From: Glaucostegus cemiculus
Taxonomy: Eukaryota
DNA length: 64,000 nt
Assembly (NCBI GenBank): GCA_976551045.1
Contig: CDPCPM010000078.1
Coordinates: forward strand, 2,604,001 to 2,668,000
Reading direction: 5' to 3'
In this document: piece after piece, positions 29,880 to 60,484 of the stretch
Numbering within the stretch: position 1 is the stretch's first letter
Layout of the letters: each line of letters begins with the position of its first letter
Program-made: the position numbers and the translations under genes
The notes under the pieces: model-generated
Told to the model about the DNA's origin: nothing
Seen by the model: the letters and a program-made list of their open reading frames with translations, nothing else
Databases searched by the model: none

Positions 29880-30168
29880 CACAGAGTCAGAGTTATACAG
29901 CACAGAAACAGGCCCTTTGGCCCAACTCATCTGTGCTGACCAAGTTGTCTATCAGATATAGTCCCATTTGCCTTCATTTGGCCCATATTCCTCTAACCCT
30001 TTCCTATCCATGTACCTGTCTAAATGTCTTTTAAGCAGTTTAATTATACTCAGCTCTACCACTTCTCTGGCAGCCCATTCCATATACCCACTGCCCTCTG
30101 TGTGGAAAAAGTACCTCCTTAGGTCCCTTTTAAAACTTTCCCCTCTTACCTTAAACCTATGCCTCTAG
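29880..30168 (-). mobile_element. CR1 LINE 3' fragment
   Basis: Reverse complement of the family at 6255-6625. Confidence 0.82.
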
Positions 30169-32555
30169 TGGATTGGCCTATTCGTTATCTATTTAATTTT
30201 GGTGAATGGGTAGGATATTGATGTTCGTTTTTTTTGAAGGTGATTAAGAAGGAGGTTGATCTATGGAATTGTGGAGATCCTGGAGGAGGTGAATCAAAGA
30301 GCGGATCATGCAGCGTAATGTGGGGTGGTTGTCAGGTGACTGATGGGGATTTGGATAAATGAAAGGAGGAGCTTATGTAAATGATTAGTGGGGGGTTTTG
30401 TGGGTGAGAGAGTGGCAGGCAAATGATTATGGGAGTCAGATCAGATGATGAGGATGGTTCAGGCAGATGATGGGGAAGGGTCTGAGGTCACTGGTGTATT
30501 GAGGTTGATCTGTAATAATGGAAAGTTACAGTGGTACCTTGTGAGGTAGATGGTCTTCTTTGCTTCGCTGATAGTGGCCCAGATTGGAGAGAACTTTTTA
30601 ATTACAGCTTTCTGTTTATTTGAAAGTTGTTAAATACATTTTTAAAGGAAAGTATACCTTTGAAAGTCAGTGCTTTGATGCTAAACCATTTAATGCTCAG
30701 TGGATTGTCTTTGGTGTTAGATACATTAAACAATATAAATATTGTTTCCTTACATATATATGTATTGTTTTAAGTTTGATAGTTGTTTCCCTATCTATGC
30801 ATTCTTGGGCTTTTCTACATTTAACTTGTCGTGCGTTTGGTTCTAAGCTTGAATAGGACATGGTAAATGATTGTAAGCACTTAGTTTGCTTTATTTTATA
30901 TTTAGTTATTGGTTAGTATTTTTCATTCAACTTATGCTTTTAATGTTTACATGTTTTTAAAATCATTTTAAGTCTTTTGATTAGATTCTCAATGTCTTTG
31001 AACATCAGAGACACTTAACAACTATGAAGCATTCTTTTTCAGCCCATGACCAGTTGTCAGAAGATGTTAGCATGTTTTGGGGGTGGTGAGGGGTGGGGTC
31101 AGGATGCCCCCTCACAGGACAGAGCTTGCACTAACTCACCAAATGCTTGTCAGGTGTGTGAGCTGTCGAATCTCTTGGCCCTCTGCACCCGGGGAAGGTA
31201 GATGTGGATGGGCAAGGTGGGGTCTGTGGTGGCTGCTGGCATGAAGTCAGAACAGCAGGGTGGTCCTGACATGATTTGGCCTGTTCTGGTCCGAGACAGA
31301 ATGCTCAAGGAAGGAGATCTCCAAGTTATATTCCAGAAGTTCTGACTCTGATGTGAAACTGCCATGTAAAAACCACCAAACAATGTCAACACTTGTTTTG
31401 AAATTGGTGTTGTAAGATGCCACACCTGGAGTATAATGCACAGTGTTGATCTCTTTAATTTAGGAAGGATGTTAATACAATGGAAGCAGTTCAGCCTAGT
31501 TTAGCTGGGCTAATGACTAGAAAGGGCAGGTTATCTTCTAAGGAAAGCTTAGACAGGCTAAGTTGTGGTGCTGTGTGTCTGGAGTTTGTACATTCTCCCT
31601 GTGACAGTGTGGGTCTCCTCCCACATCCCAAAGACATGCAGTTGGTAGCTTAATTGGTAATTGGTTTATTATTGTCACATGTACCAAGATACAGCGGAAA
31701 ATTTTATTTTGCATGCCATCCATACAGATCATTCCAAAACTTAAGTGCATTGAGGTAGTACAAAGGGAAAAGCAATAACAGAATGCTGAATATAGTGTTA
31801 CAGTAACAGAAAAAGTGCAGTGCAGGCAGACAATAAGGTTCAAGGTCCACAACAGGGTAGACTGGCTGGTGTAAAGTGCCTTAAAAGTGTTGGTAGAATT
31901 TAGGGAGAGTTGATAGGAATGTAGGAAGAATAGGTTGCAAGGAAAATTAGAGGGAGCATGAAATTGCTCTGTGAGCTTGCATAGATACAATGAATTGAAT
32001 GGCCTTCTTCAGAGTTGTAAGAAAGTAGGGATATTTTTATACATCTGATTCCCTGGGCGTGTGTCTACTGCAGCTGCTCAACTGTGAAGACCAACAGTAC
32101 TTTCCAACATAACTTCTGTGTGCGCGCCACAGATAAGGGTTACAGGCTTTGCTTTGTAAGCTTTCCAAAAACCCGCAATGTGAGCTTTAAGTGTTCCCAT
32201 GCTGTTTTTGTTTACAAACTGGGCAGATAGCAGTTCACGAAAAAGCAAAAGAAAAAAAATGTTTTTTTTCTAACAGTGAAGTTCCCAAAGGGGACTGTGT
32301 AAAAGCTGGCTTTTACACAGCTTTGACTTACACACTGTCCTTAATGGTAATAATACATATTATGTAAAAGAGCGATATGAATAAATGGAAAACCAAAGAA
32401 TCTTTGACCCCATGATTTCTGGTTACAAGATAAACAGTAGCACTACATACAGTCTATGTTGACTGACTTTCCATTGAATGCTATTGCTCTAATTGTGTGT
32501 ATTTAATTTACATATTAACAACATGTAATTAACATGTTGTTAATATGTACATGAC

Positions 32556-33335
32556 CCAAGATGGCGGCACACACGGTTGCAGCGGCCTCTCCTGGGTCTG
32601 TAGTGCTTTGTGTTTTTTGTTAGTCTTTTAGTGTTTTTGTGCTGTTTTTTTGTTTTTTTTCTTGTGTTCTTTGTTATTGATGTTTGTGTGCTTGATGTTC
32701 GTTTTATGGGTTCATTGTTTGTGCTGACGGCACCGACAGCTCGTCAGAGCTCAAAGCGTGTCGAAGGGCCTGGAGCCTCGTGGTGGCCTCGGGCTGCGGG
32801 CGGTGAGGGGGCTGCCCGGGCTGGAGGTGGTCAGCCTGTGGGGCTGGAGGTGGTCGGCCTGGGGGGCCGGAGGTCATTGGACTGCGGGGCTGGAGGTGGT
32901 CGGCCTGGGGGACCGGAGGTGGTCAGACTGCGGGGACGGAGGTGGTCGGCCTGCGGGGCCGGAGGTGGTCGGACTGTGGGGCCAGAGGTGGTCGGCCTGC
33001 GGGGCCGGAGGTGGTCATCGGATCGGACTGCGGGGCCGGAGGTGGTTGTTGGATGTAGGCCCGGAGGTTGTAGGACTGCGGGGCTGAAGGTGGTCGTCGG
33101 TGCTGGGTGAGGCAAGGAGGTGCGGCGTGGCGGGAGGTGGGGGGAGATGTAATGTTGAGGTTCTGGGAGACGTGTTGTACCAGCAGACCGAAGTCCATGC
33201 GGTTCCAATGTTTTGATGTTTTTGTCCTGTTGTCTTTTATTGTCTTTTTGCACATTGGCCTGTGGAGTACGATATCTCGCCTTCATTATGCTGTGTGTGT
33301 GTGTGTACATGAAAGTGACAATAAACTGATTCTGA
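32556..33335 (+). mobile_element. Putative non-autonomous LINE-derived element (YY1-motif 5' end, minisatellite body, LINE-like tail)
   Basis: Starts CCAAGATGGCGGC; CpG-rich; ends GTGACAATAAACTGATTCTGA, resembling local Rex/Babar 3' ends (GTGACAATAATAAACC). No RT remnant seen. Confidence 0.5.
32812..33096. repeat. G-rich minisatellite, 23 bp unit, ~12 copies
   Basis: CTGCGGGGCCGGAGGTGGTCGG(A/C) repeats at 23 bp spacing (e.g. 32951, 32974, 32997). Confidence 0.9.
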
Positions 33336-33555
33336 ACAGACCTCCTGCAGAAGGATGAGGAATGGAATTGATTGAGGTAGAGACGACTCATCTCCACATT
33401 GATTGTGCTTAGAAGGGGAGTTTTGAGGGAGTAGGCATTGCAAGGGTTAAGTGGCCCCAAACTTTTCTCCAAAAATATTTTTCTACACAAGCGAGCAGCT
33501 TTGGAATGTTTCTTGCCACCTGACAGGTGCAGGATCCCGAATAGCCTTGGCATTA

Positions 33556-34359
33556 TGTTACGAAGTAGATTACGATGGGCAAATATCCCTTTAAGATGGG
33601 ACATTGTGTGTGTGTGTGCAACGTATTACGTCAACAGAAGATAAGACTAACGTGATGAGGTCATTACAAGAAAGAAAAAGAGAGGAGAGAGAGAGAGACA
33701 AACAGACGGAGAGAGAGAAGAAGGAGCGACGGCAGCCTATTTTGTTTCTGTCGATGGATGAAGGACAGTAACTGTGTTTGTCACTAAAATCCGTGGATGG
33801 ATTTCTGGAGTAGTCCAGTGGAGTTCACTTTTTCGGTAACCTGTAGAAGGACACAGGTGTTTGCGTGGACAACCACATTTTGGATGCTCTGCAGAGTGGC
33901 AAATAATGTGGAACAAGGTGATGGAATTCACTTGGCTGCTAACCTGTAGAAGAACACAGGTATTTGCATGGACAGTCACAATCCAGGAGTTTTTGGGGTG
34001 AGAAAGTCACTACCGAGTTAGCCCTGAAGTGTCGTTCGAGTTTTGAGTGGAACATTCGGATTTCGTGATTCCTCTCTAAGTTCTCTCTATATCTATGTTT
34101 TGTCTTCGGTGGACGGTGCTTGTGAAGAAGCCTTTATTCATGTTTCATCTTACGGCTTATTGAACTGAATTTTAAGAACTAATTCCTGGACTTTGAGTTT
34201 AAGAATTCGACACACACACACGACGAGTAGTTTTGGGGTTATAGTTTAAGATTCTAATATTTTGTTTTGTACTAATATACTAACTTTTTGTTCTTATTTT
34301 ACGTATTATTGGAAGTAGTTAATAATAATGTAGTTTTAACACTGAAAGAAAAAGTAACA
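33556..34359 (+). mobile_element. LTR, left arm of inverted LTR pair
   Basis: TGTTACG...GTAACA termini; followed after AAAT by a tRNA-Pro PBS; homologous to the solo LTR at 36592. Confidence 0.9.
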
Positions 34360-34363
34360 AAAT

Positions 34364-34398
34364 TGGGGGCTCGTCCGGGATTTGAACCTGGGACCTCT
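34364..34398 (+). promoter_or_regulatory. tRNA-Pro primer-binding site, extended to 35 nt
   Basis: TGGGGGCTCGTCCGGGAT is the canonical 18 nt tRNA-Pro PBS. It continues TTGAACCTGGGACCTCT, complementary to the tRNA-Pro T-arm and variable loop with one mismatch. Confidence 0.9.
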
Positions 34399-34404
34399 TT
34401 GCTG

Positions 34405-34425
34405 TGGGAGGTGGGAGGTGTTACG
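34405..34425 (+). promoter_or_regulatory. Polypurine-tract-like sequence followed by the first 7 nt of an LTR
   Basis: TGGGAGGTGGGAGG directly followed by TGTTACG, the LTR 5' terminus. Confidence 0.65.
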
Positions 34426-34429
34426 ATTT

Positions 34430-35231
34430 TGTTACGTTTTTTTTCAGTGTTAAAACTACATTATTAATAACTACTTCCAATAATACTTAAAATAAGAACA
34501 AAAAGTTAGTATATTAGTACAAAACAAAATATTAGAATCTTAAACTATAACCCCAAAAGTACTCGTTGTGTGTGTGTGTGTCGAATTCCTAAACTCAAAG
34601 TCCAGGAATTAGTTCTTAAAGTTCAGTTCAATAAGCCGTAAGATGAAACATGAATAAAGGCTTCTTCACAAGCACCGTCCACCGAAGACAAAACATAGAT
34701 ATAGAGAGAACTTAGAGAGGAATCACGAAATCCGAATGTTCCACTCAAAACTCGAACGACACTTCAGGGCTAACTCGGTAGTGACTTTCTCACCCCGAAA
34801 ACTCCTGGATCGTGACTGTCCATGCAAATACCTGTGTTCTTCTACAGGTTAGCAGCCAAGTGAATTCCATCACCTTGTTCCACATTATCTGCCACTCTGA
34901 AGAGCATCCAAAATGTGGTTGTCCACGCAAACACCTCTGTCCTTCTACAGGTTACCAACAAAGTGAACTCCACTGGACTACTCCAGAAATCCATCCACGG
35001 ATTTTAGTGACAAACACAGTTACTGTCCTTCATTCATCGACAGAAACAAAACAGGCTGCTGTCTCTCCTTCTTCTCTCTCTCCGTCTGTTTGTCTCTCTC
35101 TCTCCTCTCTTTTTCTTCCTTGTAATGACCTCATCACGTTAGTCTTATCTTCTGTTGACGTAATACGTTGCACACACACACAATGTCCCATCTTAAAGGG
35201 ATATTTGCCTATCGTAATCTACTAAGTAACA
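34430..35231 (-). mobile_element. LTR, right arm (inverted copy)
   Basis: Full-length reverse complement of 33556-34359 with scattered substitutions; followed by ATTA, matching the left flank. Confidence 0.9.
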
Positions 35232-36591
35232 ATTACAAAAATTGATTACTATTGCCAGAAGAAAGAGGAAAAGAGCAGGTCGAGACCTGATAATGTCTGT
35301 CATATTATCTCTTTCTGTACCTGTAAGAATACAGCAACTTTTTTCAGAATGCTGAAATGTATCCAGTGATAAATTGCTTTTGCTTCTTAATATAAGGCTT
35401 CTCAAGCTTGTAGCTTAACGTTAAGATTGCCAGTTTATTTTTATATCAATGTGGTTTAATTTCTCATCTGTTAAAATGAAGGAGGAGTATGTTAAAATCT
35501 AGCCTTCACTTGAAAGCAGAACCTCTTCATAATGATTCTGAATTGTGCTATCAACAACGGGGAACTGGAAAGGAAGTACAGACAAAAATAGCTTTTGCGA
35601 GGGATTAAAGGTAAATGAAAGGGACCCAAGGCTTTTTCTGACTACAGGACCATTTATGATTTGATGGTGTCTCCGCACTTCTAGATTCTTATGAGAATCT
35701 AAGAGTTTTGGATCATTCTTAGTGGAGAAAACTGATAGGTGTAGATGAATAGGTGGGAGAAAGTCTGGAAGTAGGTCATTCCTTTGATGCACGGTCTAAT
35801 GGGTACTATAGAAACAAAGGAATGCAGATGCTGGAATCTAGATGAGTACTATAAAATGTAAACTGCTGCTTATGAAGTCTCTCTTGGCCGAAGTAAACCA
35901 TAACAGTTACCATTGTGGATTTGACTTCAAATATTGAACAGACAGTCTTAACTAATTTCAAATGTGTTCCAGTGGTGAGGTTGGTCTACTAATGTTCTAT
36001 TTAATTAAGAAATGAATGAGTTAGGAATCAGTCTACTGTTGTCTATTTAATTGCAATAAATTGGAAAGGCATTGCTCGATTTGATTTCAATTTACCATGG
36101 GTGAATACCATGAAGATTAATCTATTGATATTATAATTAATATCTGTGAATGTGAGAAGATTGGTTTATTAGAATTCTATGTTATATAGATGAATTCCTG
36201 GTAATTGCTCTGCAGCTAATCTATTTCTACAAAGTAAACCAGGTACATAATGTTTTCTATTGATATTCTAATTACTTGGGTAAATGAAAAGGGATCTGGG
36301 CAATGATCCAGATTAGACTGAAAATTTGCAATTAACTTTCATGATATCCACAACCATTTCTAATATGAGAGAATATAACTACTTCTCTAATATTCACTAG
36401 CATTACCTTCATTGAGTCTCCCACTATTAACACCCAGTGGGTCACTGTTGACCAGACATTAAATGGGACCAGCCATATAAATTCCATGGACACAAGGGCA
36501 GCCCAGAGGCTGGTATTCTATAAAGAGTGAATCATCCTCTACCTTGTCAAATCTTTTTCACCATCCATGGGGCACACATTAGCGTTGTGTG

Positions 36592-36643
36592 TGTTACGAA
36601 CTGGGTTACTATTGGTGAATGTTCCTTTAAGATAGAGCATAGT

Positions 36644-36680
<37 letters not shown>

Positions 36681-37579
36681 CGTGGTTATAACAACAGAAG
36701 ATAAAGGACGTAATGATGTTTTTGGAGCAGACAGTCGTAGTCAGTCAGAGGAGGAGAGAGAGAGAAGAGAAAGAGGGAGAGAGACAGACAGCAGCCTGCT
36801 AATCTCTATCGATGGATGAAAAACAGTAACTGTGTCTGTCACTACAATCCATGTATGGATTTTTGGAGTAACCCTGTGGAGTCCACTTTGTTGTTAACCT
36901 GTAGAGGGAAACAGGTATTTTCGTGGACGGCCACATCTCAGATGCCTTTTGGGGCGGCAGATACTTCGGAACAAAGCAGTGGTGTTCACCTTGTCATTGA
37001 CTTGTAGAAGGAAACAGGTGTTTGTGTAGACGGTCACGATTTGAGTAGACACTGAGGTGTCGTTTGGGTTCCAGAGTGGAACATTCGAGAGCCTTTCAGG
37101 GTGAGGAAGATGCAGTGGAGTAGTCACTGCTGAGTAGACACTGAGGTGTCGTATGGGTTCCATTGTGGAACATTTGGATTTCATTATGTCTCTATTTTCT
37201 CTCTACGTTTTGTCCTCAGTCAACGGTGGTTGTTGAAGAAGCCTTTGATCATGTTTCACCTTATGACTTGTTGAGCTGAACTTTGAGAACTATTCCTGGA
37301 CTTGNNNNNNNNNNNNNNNNNNNNNNNNNNNNNNNNNNNNNNNNNNNNNNNNNNNNNNNNNNNNNNNNNNNNNNNNNNNNNNNNNNNNNNNNNNNNNNNN
37401 NNNNNNNNNNNNNNNNNNNNNNNNNNNNNNNNNNNNNNNNNNNNNTTAATGTTTAAGATTTAACATTTTTACTTCTAACATTCTAACATTTTTCTTATTA
37501 TCATAAGTAGTTATTAATAAAGTAGTTTTTGACACTGATGCATGACTCGGTTTGTTTCTTTTGTTGCTGGTTTGTAACA
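36592..37579 (+). mobile_element. Solo LTR related to the inverted pair, spanning an assembly gap
   Basis: TGTTACGAA...TGTAACA termini; shared blocks (CCTTTAAGAT, (TG)n, GTCGATGGATGAA-like, GAAGAAGCCTTT, ATTCCTGGACTT); AATAAA near the 3' end; flanks TGTG/TGTA; no PBS after it. Confidence 0.8.
37305..37445. other. Assembly gap (141 N)
   Basis: Run of N. Confidence 1.
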
Positions 37580-38119
37580 TGTAAACTTGGCTGAACATAT
37601 TTTCAATACCACCATCAAAGACAAAGCCACTCACTTGATTGGTGCGTTACCCTTTACCTTGTCCTGCACATCCTCCGCTACTGGCTACAGAAGAGGAACT
37701 GATCTCATCAACCATCTTGGAACCCACAGAACTAGAGTGATAAAAACTTGTCCTCGACCCTGAGGAACTAAGAAGAAAGTGTGAACTGGATGGAATTAGT
37801 CTATTGACGTTGTATTCATTGAGGTGAATGGAAAGGGAATTGGCCTGTTAATATTTTACTTAGTCTGTGTGAATGGAAAGAGGTTGGCCATAGACAATCT
37901 GTTAAACTGGATGTCTAAGAATGTAGTTGGTCAGTACATAAAAATATTGAATGGGGAGACCATTGGTCTGGCCCTATGCTATGTCATGTTTATTCATGAA
38001 CTATTCCACTTAAATAGATTGAATAGGAAAGGGAAGATCTGTTGACGTAATATTTAATGGATTTGAATGATAAAGCATTAATTTGCTCAAGTTCTACTTA
38101 AATAAGGTGAATGGGAATG

Positions 38120-38345
38120 TAGAGCAACAAACAATATGCAGGAGGAACTCAGTGGGTTGAGCAATATCTAAGGGAGGAAAGGAACTGTTGAGGTTACAGG
38201 TTGAAACCCTGCATCAGGATCCTTGCAGGGTTTTGACCCGAAACGTCGACAATTCCTTTCCTCCCATAGATGCTGCTTAACCCACTGAGTTCTTCCTGCA
38301 GATTGTCTATTGCTCCAGATTCCAGCATTTGCAGTCTCTTGCGTC
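38120..38345. mobile_element. Palindromic MITE-like element built from Penelope terminal sequence
   Basis: ~90 bp imperfect inverted arms centred near 38215-38220. Partial relatives at ~4185, 9735, 40660-40820, 54610, 59245. Confidence 0.65.
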
Positions 38346-38994
38346 ACCTCTCTGAATGGGAATCTATTTGTCCATTTAATTTTTATACTATTGAGGTGAA
38401 ATGGTAGGGGATTCTCTTTAATTGAGGCAAATGAGAATTAGTATGTTACTCCGTATAATCAAAATGAATCAGAATGATGGGTTTATTTAACCGGGATGAA
38501 TGGGACGTGTGTTGGGTTATTCTAAATGTGTACAATTGAAGTGAATGCTTAGAGGCTGTCTCATTGACTTCTTTCTAATTGCAGTGGATTTGAAGAAATT
38601 GGTCAATTGGTATTGAATTTAATTGGGATGAAGTAGAAGGCCACGGGTCATTTTTAATTGCCTGGATTTAAATTCCCCAGCTGCCACGCTCATATTCAAA
38701 CCCATGCCCCCAGAATATTAATCAGCCTTGATCTATGTGCCACCATGCTGTTAATTGGAAGGAAGTTGGATTAATTCAAAGAGAAACTGATTTTTCAAAG
38801 AGGATGTTGCTAATAATCTTGGTAGAAAGGGGTTAGTAGAGATATAGTTGAACTGAAAGCTGATAAAGGAGGCACTAGAAATATCGGAAACAAGGAATGC
38901 CAGAAGCATTCAACAAATCAAGCAGCATCTCTGGTGAGAGAAATAAAGTCAACACTTCAGTTCAAAGGCCTTCATCATAACTCCAATTACTCGA

Positions 38995-40640
38995 AAGGCG
39001 AGCAAGACATCACATCTGGATGAGATACCTCCTAGGTTGCCGAGAGAGGTGGGAATGGAGATTATAGAAGTGCTTGCTGTAAACTCCCAGTCTAACCCAA
39101 AAGCATGAAAAACGGCAAATGTAAAACACGTGTCCAAAAAGAACTGTAAGGAACTACCAGGGAACTATGGGCCACCTCAGTTTTGGACCAGATTCCAGTA
39201 ACATTCTAAAGACGTACGGGTAGGTTAATTTGGGGGTTTAGAATGGGCGGCGCGGACTCATTGGGCCGAAAGGGCCTGTTACCACGCTGTAAATAAAATA
39301 AATTTAATAAAATAAAAAATACATTTAAAATTTAACAATAATCAGGGAAAACGTTAATAAGCAGATTGACTTGGGAAAGGCGAACCAGCACGGATTTGTT
39401 AAAGGCATGTCTGGTTTAGGTAACATACTTGAATATTTGATGATATAATAGAGATTAATGAAGAGGGGCAATAGATTCCATCCGTATGGATTTTAAGAAA
39501 CTGTATGATAAATCCTTTGCAAAAAGCTAGTTACCAAAATTGAGGTTGATGGAACTAATTAATCAAAAGCAGTGTGGATTGTACATTGGCTTAAAGGCAG
39601 AGGGCAGCTGTAAATGGTTGTTTTGCACACAGTAGACAGAGTTGGTCCCCAGAGGTCAGTGTCTTTTGTAATATATATTAATAACTTGGATACACGTGCA
39701 GGGTAAAATTTCCAATTTACAGATTACGCAAAGATGGAAGCATGGTAAACAATGAGTAGGTAGCAATAGGTAGTGAAAAGACATAGATGGATTGTTTGAA
39801 TAGGCAAGCAAGTGACAGATGAATTAATATAAGTAACCCCAGCATTACTGAAGGGCTGCGTTCCTAGAAACTGGTCCATATCGTGATTTTCTGTATGGCG
39901 AAGACCCGTCATCTGCTCATGAATCAAGAGACACAAGGTGAATAAAATTAGTATTGCATTGATTTATTTCCTTTATTTCACACAAATGAGAGTGAGTTTT
40001 ATTCCATAGCTTAAACTTCTGGGTAGTGATTTGTGAATTCTGTAAAGGCGAAATTTTGTTACCCAAACGGCTGTAATGGGAGGGGTCACCTGTACAGCCA
40101 AGTAAGCAGTGGTATTATTTGGTAGAAAGAAGGGGCAATGTAGACAAGGCACATGGGAATGTGGGAATCATAAATAGAAGCAATGAGTACAAAAATAAAA
40201 AGTTAACACTTAACCAGTAAAAAAAAATGCTGGCTAGCAGACAGCTGGAGTATTGCATCCAATTCTGGTCAACTAATTTTGGGAAGGTTGTGATGGTGCT
40301 CGAGAGGGTGAAGAAAAGATTTTCAGGGATGATTTTCAGGGATGATTTTAGGATGATAGATTTCAAACAGAGAAGGTAGAGTTGTTCTCCTTGAAGGTTG
40401 AGAGGATTTGATAGAGGTGGACAGATCATGGCTGGTTTGGACAGGGGTGAGAGGGAGAACCTGCTTCCATTAGCAGTCGCCTCACAAATTTGGGGTGATA
40501 CAATTAAGATTTTAGGAAAAAGATAGAAGGAAAATCTTTCCTACTTAGAGACTTGTTATGATCTGGAATTCACTGCTAGAAAGAGTGGTGGAAACAGAAT
40601 CACTCAGTGCCTCAAAAAATAAATTGCATAGGCACTAAGA
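38995..40640 (+). mobile_element. Old degraded CR1 LINE with nested insertions
   Basis: CAGCACGGATTTGTTAAAGG and CTGGAGTATTGCATCCAATTCTGG. Interrupted by a SINE 3' half (~39205-39320) and a MITE. Confidence 0.7.
39830..40092. mobile_element. Tc1/mariner (pogo/Tigger-like) MITE
   Basis: Diverged terminal inverted repeats (TAAGTAACCCCAGCATTAC / GTAATGGGAGGGGTCACCTG) with TA on both sides, inside a CR1. Confidence 0.5.
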
Positions 40641-59548: not shown

Positions 59549-59749
59549 CCAGGGTGCTCCTGGCCAGATAGAAGGCACCTTAACAAAACTAGGACCACAC
59601 CAGGGTGCTCCTGGACAGATAGAAGGCACCTTAACAAAACTAGGACCACACCAGGGTGCTCCTGGACAGATAGAAGGCACCTTAACAAAACTAGGACCAC
59701 ACCAGGGTGCTCCTGGCCAGATAGAAGGCACCTTAACAAAACTAGGACC
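59549..59749. repeat. Near-perfect 51 bp tandem repeat, ~3.9 copies
   Basis: CCAGGGTGCTCCTGG(C/A)CAGATAGAAGGCACCTTAACAAAACTAGGACCACA; units start at 59549, 59600, 59651, 59702. Confidence 0.97.
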
Positions 59750-60484
59750 TATGGCCTCTCAGGAGATTTCAGTGGAGAGAGGATGACATGAATTTGGCAG
59801 GGAATGGGCAGAGGAAGGTAGCATTGAAAAGGAGAGACTAATGCCCAAATAGTTGATCAAGATGAATGACACCAGAATAAGATATAGAAGGTTAGTAAAC
59901 GGAACCAGACTAGAGAGAGTACAAGCAGGCCTAATGTAGGTTTACAGTGTATTTACATAAATATAAGAATCAAATTAACCAAGGTTGGTGAGCAGCAGAG
60001 GCAGTTAACTACGTGGGGTTTTGGTGTTGTGTCCATAACATTAGGCAATAAGGATCAAGATCAAAATCTATCTGTTGGTATTAAGAGAGCAAAGAGATCT
60101 GCTTACACTACTGTGAGTTTTCAATGGACTGCTAACTAGTTGGAAGGTTATTGAGAAGCAACTTTGCAGCGGAAGTACATAGAGGAGGATTATCCAGTGT
60201 TTGGGGGGGGGGGGGGGCGCGGGAAGGGGAGGCTATCCAAAACAGGCTGGGACAGGAATAACACAAGGTCAAAGAGGGGCATGAAAACATAGAAAATATA
60301 TGACACAGAGGGCCATTTAGCCCATTGTGTTGAAAAACCGCTGCCTAGCCTAATCTCACCCTTGCCAGCCCTATGGCTCTTGGCGTACACATCCAAGCAC
60401 TGTTTAAGTGTGATGAGGCTTTTTATTCACATATTCCATATGCTGTAGAAGGAGGTCATTTGGCTCACTAAGTCTATATCAGCT

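Follow-up and report, generated by a model that had tools for sequence, protein, structure and literature searches.

In HIV-1 the plus strand stops before m1A58 of the primer tRNA, with minor stops beyond it that include position 37, and strands extended too far are described as unable to integrate (PMC13191261, PMC8599865). The m1A58 modification is present in human tRNA-Pro (PMC11251516). According to the Lauermann and Boeke model of PPT recycling in Ty3 and Ty1, as presented in PMC5371799, the plus strand made first includes a copy of the tRNA and is a dead end; once the tRNA has been cut off, a second one is primed at the PPT and ends at U5. The termini of Ginger1 are inverted, begin with TGTNR and are accompanied by a 4-bp target duplication; its authors proposed two oppositely oriented LTRs at its origin, with a chain of events described as unclear (PMC2836005).

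The window considered here is a stretch of 64,000 nucleotides from Glaucostegus cemiculus (assembly GCA_976551045.1, contig CDPCPM010000078.1, positions 2,604,001 to 2,668,000). It contains a 1676-bp near-palindrome in which a pair of inverted LTRs, presenting two U3 ends and with ATTA duplicated around the whole pair, encloses an over-long copy of tRNA-Pro (Table 1).

An inverted LTR pair around an over-long tRNA-Pro copy

In an alignment of the two arms (33556-34363 and 34426-35231), which has 6 gap positions, 781 of 804 aligned bases agree. The left LTR ends in CA at 34358-34359, and both ends of the element read TGTTA. Only 62 nt separate the arms, comprising the PBS, the tRNA copy, the PPT-like patch and 7 nt of U3, and the inverted arm starts exactly at the linker. 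Both arms lack about 35 nt of the family U5 and carry an A-run in its place; a pattern built for this lesion matched the two arms of this element only in the 2.85-Gb genome. As the lesion is private to the two arms, they likely derive from one template molecule. The A-run lies downstream of the family AATAAA, which suggests that it is a copy of the poly(A) tail; A-runs after the same site also occur in the junction patches of L162 and L135.

Table 1. Features of the inverted-LTR element, in window coordinates
Feature	Position	Strand	Basis or remark
Left target site duplication (ATTA, 4 bp)	33552..33555	+	
Left LTR arm, TG...CA, putative Gmr1-like Gypsy family	33556..34359	+	family assignment via domains of relatives
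A-rich patch in place of ~35 nt of family U5	34345..34353	+	common only to the right arm
Linker, 4 nt, LTR end to PBS, family-typical	34360..34363	+	
PBS for tRNA-Pro, 18 nt	34364..34381	+	
Read-through copy of tRNA-Pro positions 58 to 42, 17 nt, CpG-type mismatch at 34389	34382..34398	+	
PPT-like patch with 7-nt duplication relative to family PPT	34399..34418	+	compared with L023
U3 start, first 7 nt; next base doubles as inverted-arm start (1-nt overlap)	34419..34425	+	
Right arm: whole LTR and 4-nt linker, inverted, no PBS	34426..35231	-	
Right target site duplication (ATTA, 4 bp)	35232..35235	+	

The first-pass annotation of this DNA had described a tRNA-Pro match well beyond the usual PBS, and this is confirmed. 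Compared with a tRNA-Pro gene of the same genome (L083, with its 17-nt intron removed and CCA added), positions 34364-34398 match the tRNA 3' end at 34 of 35 bases, the sole mismatch being a CpG-type C>T at copied nt 26 (window 34389). The copy adjoins the LTR end and its 4-nt linker, so that its first 18 nt are the PBS and the other 17 nt go beyond it. In the interval originally noted, the final 4 nt (34399-34402) have no ungapped tRNA match; given one inserted T and a CpG change they could add three tRNA bases, which places the end point between 35 and 38. As read here, the copy stops at tRNA position 42, and the main stop of the family is at position 38. A chance match is ruled out by a backwards control pattern, which found 0 genome matches versus 407 for the forward one. 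The annotation had also pointed to the CCA end, but we rejected this as proof of read-through: every PBS has it, and it is uninformative. It had further raised a full tRNA gene or tRNA-SINE as an alternative source. ARAGORN called no tRNA gene in the window, Rfam found no tRNA in 30000-40000 at E<=1, and in place of a whole cloverleaf or SINE head only tRNA positions 76-42 are present.

The parent family is probably Gmr1-like Gypsy, judged by domain order and a SCAN-type gag. In a near-full-length copy, L190, the first long frame contains SCAN (PF02023, E 6e-12), zf-CCHC and Integrase_H2C2, followed further on by RVT_1 and then RT_RNaseH near the 3' LTR (5 frames scanned, 2 with no matches); L153 and L144 have H2C2 and then rve (4 frames scanned, 2 with no matches). 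Integrase thus lies upstream of RT in the family (L190, L153, L144), an order described as the defining feature of Gmr1-like Gypsy elements (PMC3587641), and SCAN is described as derived from the gag of such elements (PMC3424704). As an internal reference, L190 has unrelated sequence replacing part of its integrase, and a stretch of L153 was added. An env gene between pol and the 3' LTR, as in a retrovirus or ERV, was not seen in this one copy, in which the RNase H frame (L190:2609-2863) ends about 130 nt before the 3' LTR. Unlike Gmr1-like elements, the window element has no coding sequence and its LTRs are inverted.

Elsewhere in the window, positions 36805-37040 hold an older partial LTR of this family, which is 76% similar to the left arm. 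A G-rich 23-nt tandem repeat (32795-33047), a 51-nt tandem repeat (59549-59800) and a 100-nt inverted repeat with a 10-nt spacer (38114-38323; 83% complementary, with sub-threshold matches to microRNA families) were also observed.

Recurrent read-through and marks of mature tRNA

Read-through is not a one-off event but a recurrent class in this Gypsy family. A pattern of LTR end plus PBS has 3962 matches in the genome, of which 300 (7.6%) also match when the pattern is extended into the tRNA; a looser read-through pattern has 407 matches. Ordinary junctions behave otherwise: the first 30 unselected ones, all on one contig, stop at 18 nt (30/30), so that the 35-nt match is absent from these ordinary family members. 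We sampled as read-through loci the first 100 exact places among the matches listed, the window's included, and extended 20 loci with internal sequence. The end points of the 100 take 26 values between 24 and 70 nt, with 39 nt in 21 loci, 37 in 12, 45 in 10 and 35 in 7; among the 56 copies that reach nt 39, 21 stop there. The peak at 39 nt would fit the modification m1G37, and it also equals the length of the 3' exon plus CCA of these intron-bearing genes.

The sampled loci differ from one another in length or following sequence in 94 of 100 cases, and among the 2556 LTR pairs that can be formed from 72 arms only one pair with different flanks reaches 98% identity. The differing lengths and junctions and the low pair identity suggest that read-through copies mostly represent independent events. 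These data bear directly on the possibility that the long match was inherited from the RNA of a sub-lineage with an extended PBS, with no read-through in the making of this copy. Such a sub-lineage has a possible example in L293-L298, six matches representing five insertions, in which one 39-nt copy is joined to leader sequence about 60 nt into the internal region. Two of these insertions, with different flanks, have LTRs 99.3% alike, and the group may be a small lineage with an extended PBS that moved again. The window sequence after nt 35 differs from that junction, however, and no parent with the window's post-PBS sequence was seen among the loci examined; inheritance is thus very unlikely here, and read-through during the making of this copy is the reading that we retain. 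Two copies with PBS variants that were compared for inheritance proved to be one duplicated insertion.

Several features of the longer copies concern the state of the primer. A34 is nearly always inosine, according to PMC7954030. Of 29 copies that reach nt 42, 12 clearly read position 34 as G and one more probably does; 8 end just after G34, 3 read U, 5 are ambiguous through an extra base, and none reads A. The 48 intronless genome matches comprise 23 GGG, 14 CGG, 8 TGG and 3 AGG anticodons. Linkage to an LTR, scored in the first 30 of these, was found for 11/11 GGG, 0/2 AGG, 3/8 TGG and 3/9 CGG. Another 93 matches were tallied by hand: 11 were set aside for an extra G or a point change, and the remaining 82 run into intron-like sequence, with 37 AGG, 43 TGG, 2 CGG and 0 GGG. 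Since RT reads inosine as G, and since a GGG anticodon is absent from the 82 intron-type genes, the family template appears to be mature tRNA; the GGG reading is the strongest mark of this. Neither PMC11301382 nor PMC7954030 was seen to state directly that eukaryotic tRNA-Pro carries m1G37 or that inosine is read as G by RT. Intron loss alone was considered as proof of a mature template and rejected, as intronless tRNA-Pro genes exist in this genome (L228, L236-L240). Most tRNA-Pro genes with AGG and TGG anticodons carry a 16-19 nt intron after position 37 (L063-L090 and related), and intronless genes of all three anticodons occur.

Opposite position 58, at copied nt 19, the first 100 of 180 listed matches include 15 with C and 8 with A, a change in 23 of 100, against 0/100 at nt 20; four of the 20 matches fetched for this site are one duplicated insertion and account for four of the 8 A cases. 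The signal fits the misreading pattern of m1A by RT, but is confounded by the element's own base there: 30 ordinary copies comprise 25 with C and 5 with G, and of 5 others 3 have A. Because the window copy does not reach the anticodon, and its nt 19 is T, the maturity of its own template is argued by analogy: it too was presumably mature tRNA. The first-pass annotation had proposed both read-through and a mature template. Passage beyond position 58 is backed by the 18-nt stop of ordinary junctions and by the mature-tRNA marks in longer relatives; the mature template holds for those relatives, while the window copy itself is too short to show the marks.

Some further observations concern the tRNA copies and their borders. 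The first base after the 18-nt PBS varies in ordinary copies (C, G or A; T in none of 35) and the next bases are constant (L091-L120, L004, L019, L022, L024, L025); it is possibly a base added opposite m1A58 before transfer. At five loci (L129, L142, L203, L269 and L268) the tRNA-Pro copy gives way at exactly nt 39 to the 5' part of tRNA-Gly(GCC), starting at its position 37 and keeping the register, an identity obtained with ARAGORN on 27 of 30 loci. These hybrid loci have different flanks, and L268 has no LTR; either RT switched between similar tRNAs, or the template was a hybrid tRNA from cross-ligated halves. L032 and L165 contain two tRNA-Pro copies joined tail to tail, and in L032 a further tRNA copy, putatively of tRNA-Asp, lies between them and starts at its CCA end. 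An extra G occurs in the run next to the anticodon in 10 intronless-looking copies (e.g. L049, L169), a possible RT stutter at position 37.

Inverted arms and their proposed formation

An inverted U3 end lies within about 1.5 kb at 54 of the 100 read-through loci. Where both ends are available (n=49), an exact 4-bp duplication flanks the element in 40 and a duplication within one mismatch in 45, compared with shuffle-control means over the same 49 loci of 1.2 (maximum 5) and 5.1, respectively; three of the 9 loci that lack an exact duplication are one insertion. At 14 loci with neither a second att end nor internal sequence, target duplications did not exceed chance (2 versus 1.6 in the shuffle). 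The duplications around inverted pairs indicate concerted insertion, and the inverted arms were likely often inserted by integrase. Each arm is closest to its own partner in 15/15 elements that have both arms complete (median 99.6% versus 94.4%); the window pair, at 97.1%, is among the lowest of them. Inverted U5 ends lack a PBS in 26 of 27 cases, and four loci, three of which are one insertion, overlap the PBS border by 6 nt. The 15 full arms all start at or next to the linker, several with a 0-2 nt overlap, and partial inverted arms land inside the LTR with overlaps of 0-4 nt. Some inverted halves carry leader and gag-pol sequence. L035 and L141, which share a junction, were considered as one re-mobilised inverted element and rejected: the 95.4% similarity of their LTRs falls within background, and there is a short overlap at the shared junction.

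The 20 loci extended through internal sequence are more varied: a direct 3' LTR with a 4-bp duplication is present in 7, and an inverted LTR with a duplication in 2; L282 is inverted with no duplication, L281 lacks its left end, and the other 9 are complex. L281 is otherwise an inverted-LTR unit with gag and integrase sequence and no RT. L282 lies inside another copy, and its inverted ends surround gag, an integrase zinc finger and the integrase core, again with no RT. The 7 direct cases, with a jump into the internal region, show that the scheme offered earlier for the window, in which read-through is followed by a jump to the PPT and leaves a TRIM-like internal deletion with its 3' LTR in direct orientation, does occur in the family. 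In the window the PPT-like patch indeed follows the tRNA copy. A simple internal deletion is not supported: just 7 nt of direct U3 are followed by an inverted LTR, and the 4-bp duplication flanks the whole inverted pair. We therefore regard that scheme as extremely improbable for this element.

We instead propose, with a probability of roughly 75%, that the window element is an inverted-LTR element formed by tail-to-tail fusion of two plus strands of the same template, one of them with 35 nt of tRNA copy, and then inserted by integrase. The anatomy, the private U5 lesion, the recurrence of the class, the marks of tRNA modification in longer relatives and the target duplications can be read directly from the loci, and from them we infer the following steps. 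During minus-strand synthesis, a premature jump onto the poly(A) tail would have left the A-patch in place of U5. The first PPT-primed plus strand would then have passed m1A58, and its non-matching 3' tail would have blocked the normal second transfer. After removal of the tRNA by RNase H, another plus strand would have been primed at the PPT, in the manner of Ty3 PPT recycling, and would have ended exactly at the linker and so carried no PBS. The two 3' ends would have been joined by short-overlap template jumps (by RT, or by host repair), here via the PPT/U3 patch, and then filled in. The resulting duplex would have two U3 ends, both TG...CA, and would be accepted by integrase, as LTR ends are short inverted repeats and two U3 ends would serve the enzyme. 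We draw the joining step from the 0-6 nt overlaps at the junctions; the 26 of 27 inverted arms that lack a PBS match the second Ty3 plus strand as described in PMC5371799.

The same read-through could also have been followed by a fold-back, in which one plus strand copies its own LTR to form a hairpin that a later PPT-primed strand opens. This would account for arms that are closest to each other, for partial arms that land inside the LTR with 1-4 nt overlaps, and for the 45-nt stop that overlaps the PBS border by 6 nt, and the 7-nt U3 patch of the window element could stem from the terminal inverted repeat of the LTR itself. However, the near-uniform lack of a PBS at inverted U5 ends, together with the fact that all 15 full arms begin at the linker or beside it, points to a strand that truly ended there rather than to random self-priming. 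Moreover, the tail-to-tail tRNA copies of L032 and L165, and the inverted halves that carry gag-pol, need two strands. We consider fold-back rather unlikely for the window element, and a fair rival chiefly for partial arms.

Fusion of two plus strands is also preferred over events in host DNA, such as a tRNA gene, retrocopy or SINE beside an LTR, rearranged insertions or an assembly fold-back. The genome does contain intronless tRNA-Pro genes, and long palindromes can be assembly errors. Against this, the copy keeps the register of the PBS at the LTR end in every case, a single duplication encloses both arms, and the flanks are unique; the arms differ at 23/804 sites, and their shared lesion occurs in no other copy. 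An origin in host DNA is thus highly unlikely.

Implications and comparison with known systems

Read-through products have been called dead ends that are unable to integrate, in the terms of PMC8599865; in this one family they make up 300 of 3962 LTR-PBS junctions, and about half of the sampled read-through loci entered the genome as inverted-LTR elements. These data support PPT recycling at the genomic level for a Gypsy element of an animal, and offer a one-step mechanism for the oppositely oriented LTRs from which Ginger1 was proposed to have arisen (PMC2836005). An assembly also makes it possible to count germline tRNA modifications of the past (inosine 34, the block at 37/38 and possibly m1A58). 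Tools that seek only direct LTR pairs would likely miss this class, and palindromes of this length could give rise to hairpin RNA or to instability. With integrase upstream of RT, a fusion that truncates the partner strand would yield a TIR-flanked, integrase-bearing, RT-less element in one step; L282 has this layout, with no target duplication. We tentatively suggest, as a broader view that is more doubtful than the account of the single locus, that Gmr1-type reverse transcription might routinely turn dead-end plus strands into inverted-repeat integrase substrates, that this could be a direct route to a Ginger-like DNA transposon, and that the hundreds of copies might serve as a fossil tRNA-sequencing library of germline primer modifications, Pro/Gly hybrids included.

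Among described systems, the over-extension seen in HIV-1 and HTLV-1 shares with this family the copying of tRNA past 18 nt; a later stop is described there at position 37, and the tail blocks second transfer (PMC13191261, PMC8599865, PMC11251516). This over-extension is described in vitro and in TRMT6-mutant cells, whereas here about 300 products have integrated, many with target duplications. The PPT recycling of Ty3 and Ty1 yields a second strand with no PBS, like the inverted arms here; in yeast particles the dead-end strands accumulate, and PMC5371799 was not seen to describe their fusion into integrants with inverted LTRs. Single clones of retroviruses (Colicelli and Goff 1986; HITME, both as cited in PMC12220202) carry nearly whole mature tRNAs, tRNA-Gly and tRNA-Asp, beside an LTR. 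These are laboratory products with non-cognate tRNAs, formed as circles or by integrase-independent joins, and as summarized in that source they comprise no inverted-LTR class. The window element shares with Ginger1 termini of the TGTNR type (TGTTA) and a 4-bp duplication (ATTA). By the description in PMC2836005, Ginger1 has TIRs of 40-270 bp, CCGG/CCGT targets and a transposase, whereas the arms here are about 800 bp and the targets vary. Movement as DNA by a Ginger1-like transposase is not in evidence, with 62 nt between the arms and no second insertion of any inverted element among the loci compared.

DIRS elements have inverted LTRs, a tyrosine recombinase and no target duplication; here the parent encodes an rve integrase and 4-bp duplications are made. 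With TRIMs, whose LTRs are in direct orientation, the window element shares a PBS and PPT between two LTRs and the lack of coding sequence, but its LTRs are inverted. TRIMs are moreover multi-copy families under 1000 bp, as described in PMC10886601, whereas this element spans 1676 bp and its U5 lesion is private to its own two arms. The Helenus elements of the same source carry part of a tRNA inside both LTRs; here it lies outside the LTR, antisense and once, with one copy per event. In the literature searched, which covered few subscription papers and not Repbase, neither integrated read-through products nor inverted-LTR products were seen described as a class within a genome. The separate ingredients, over-extension, PPT recycling and single clones in which a tRNA copy adjoins an LTR, are known, as far as the cited sources go; what this family appears to add is an inverted-LTR class in the genome.
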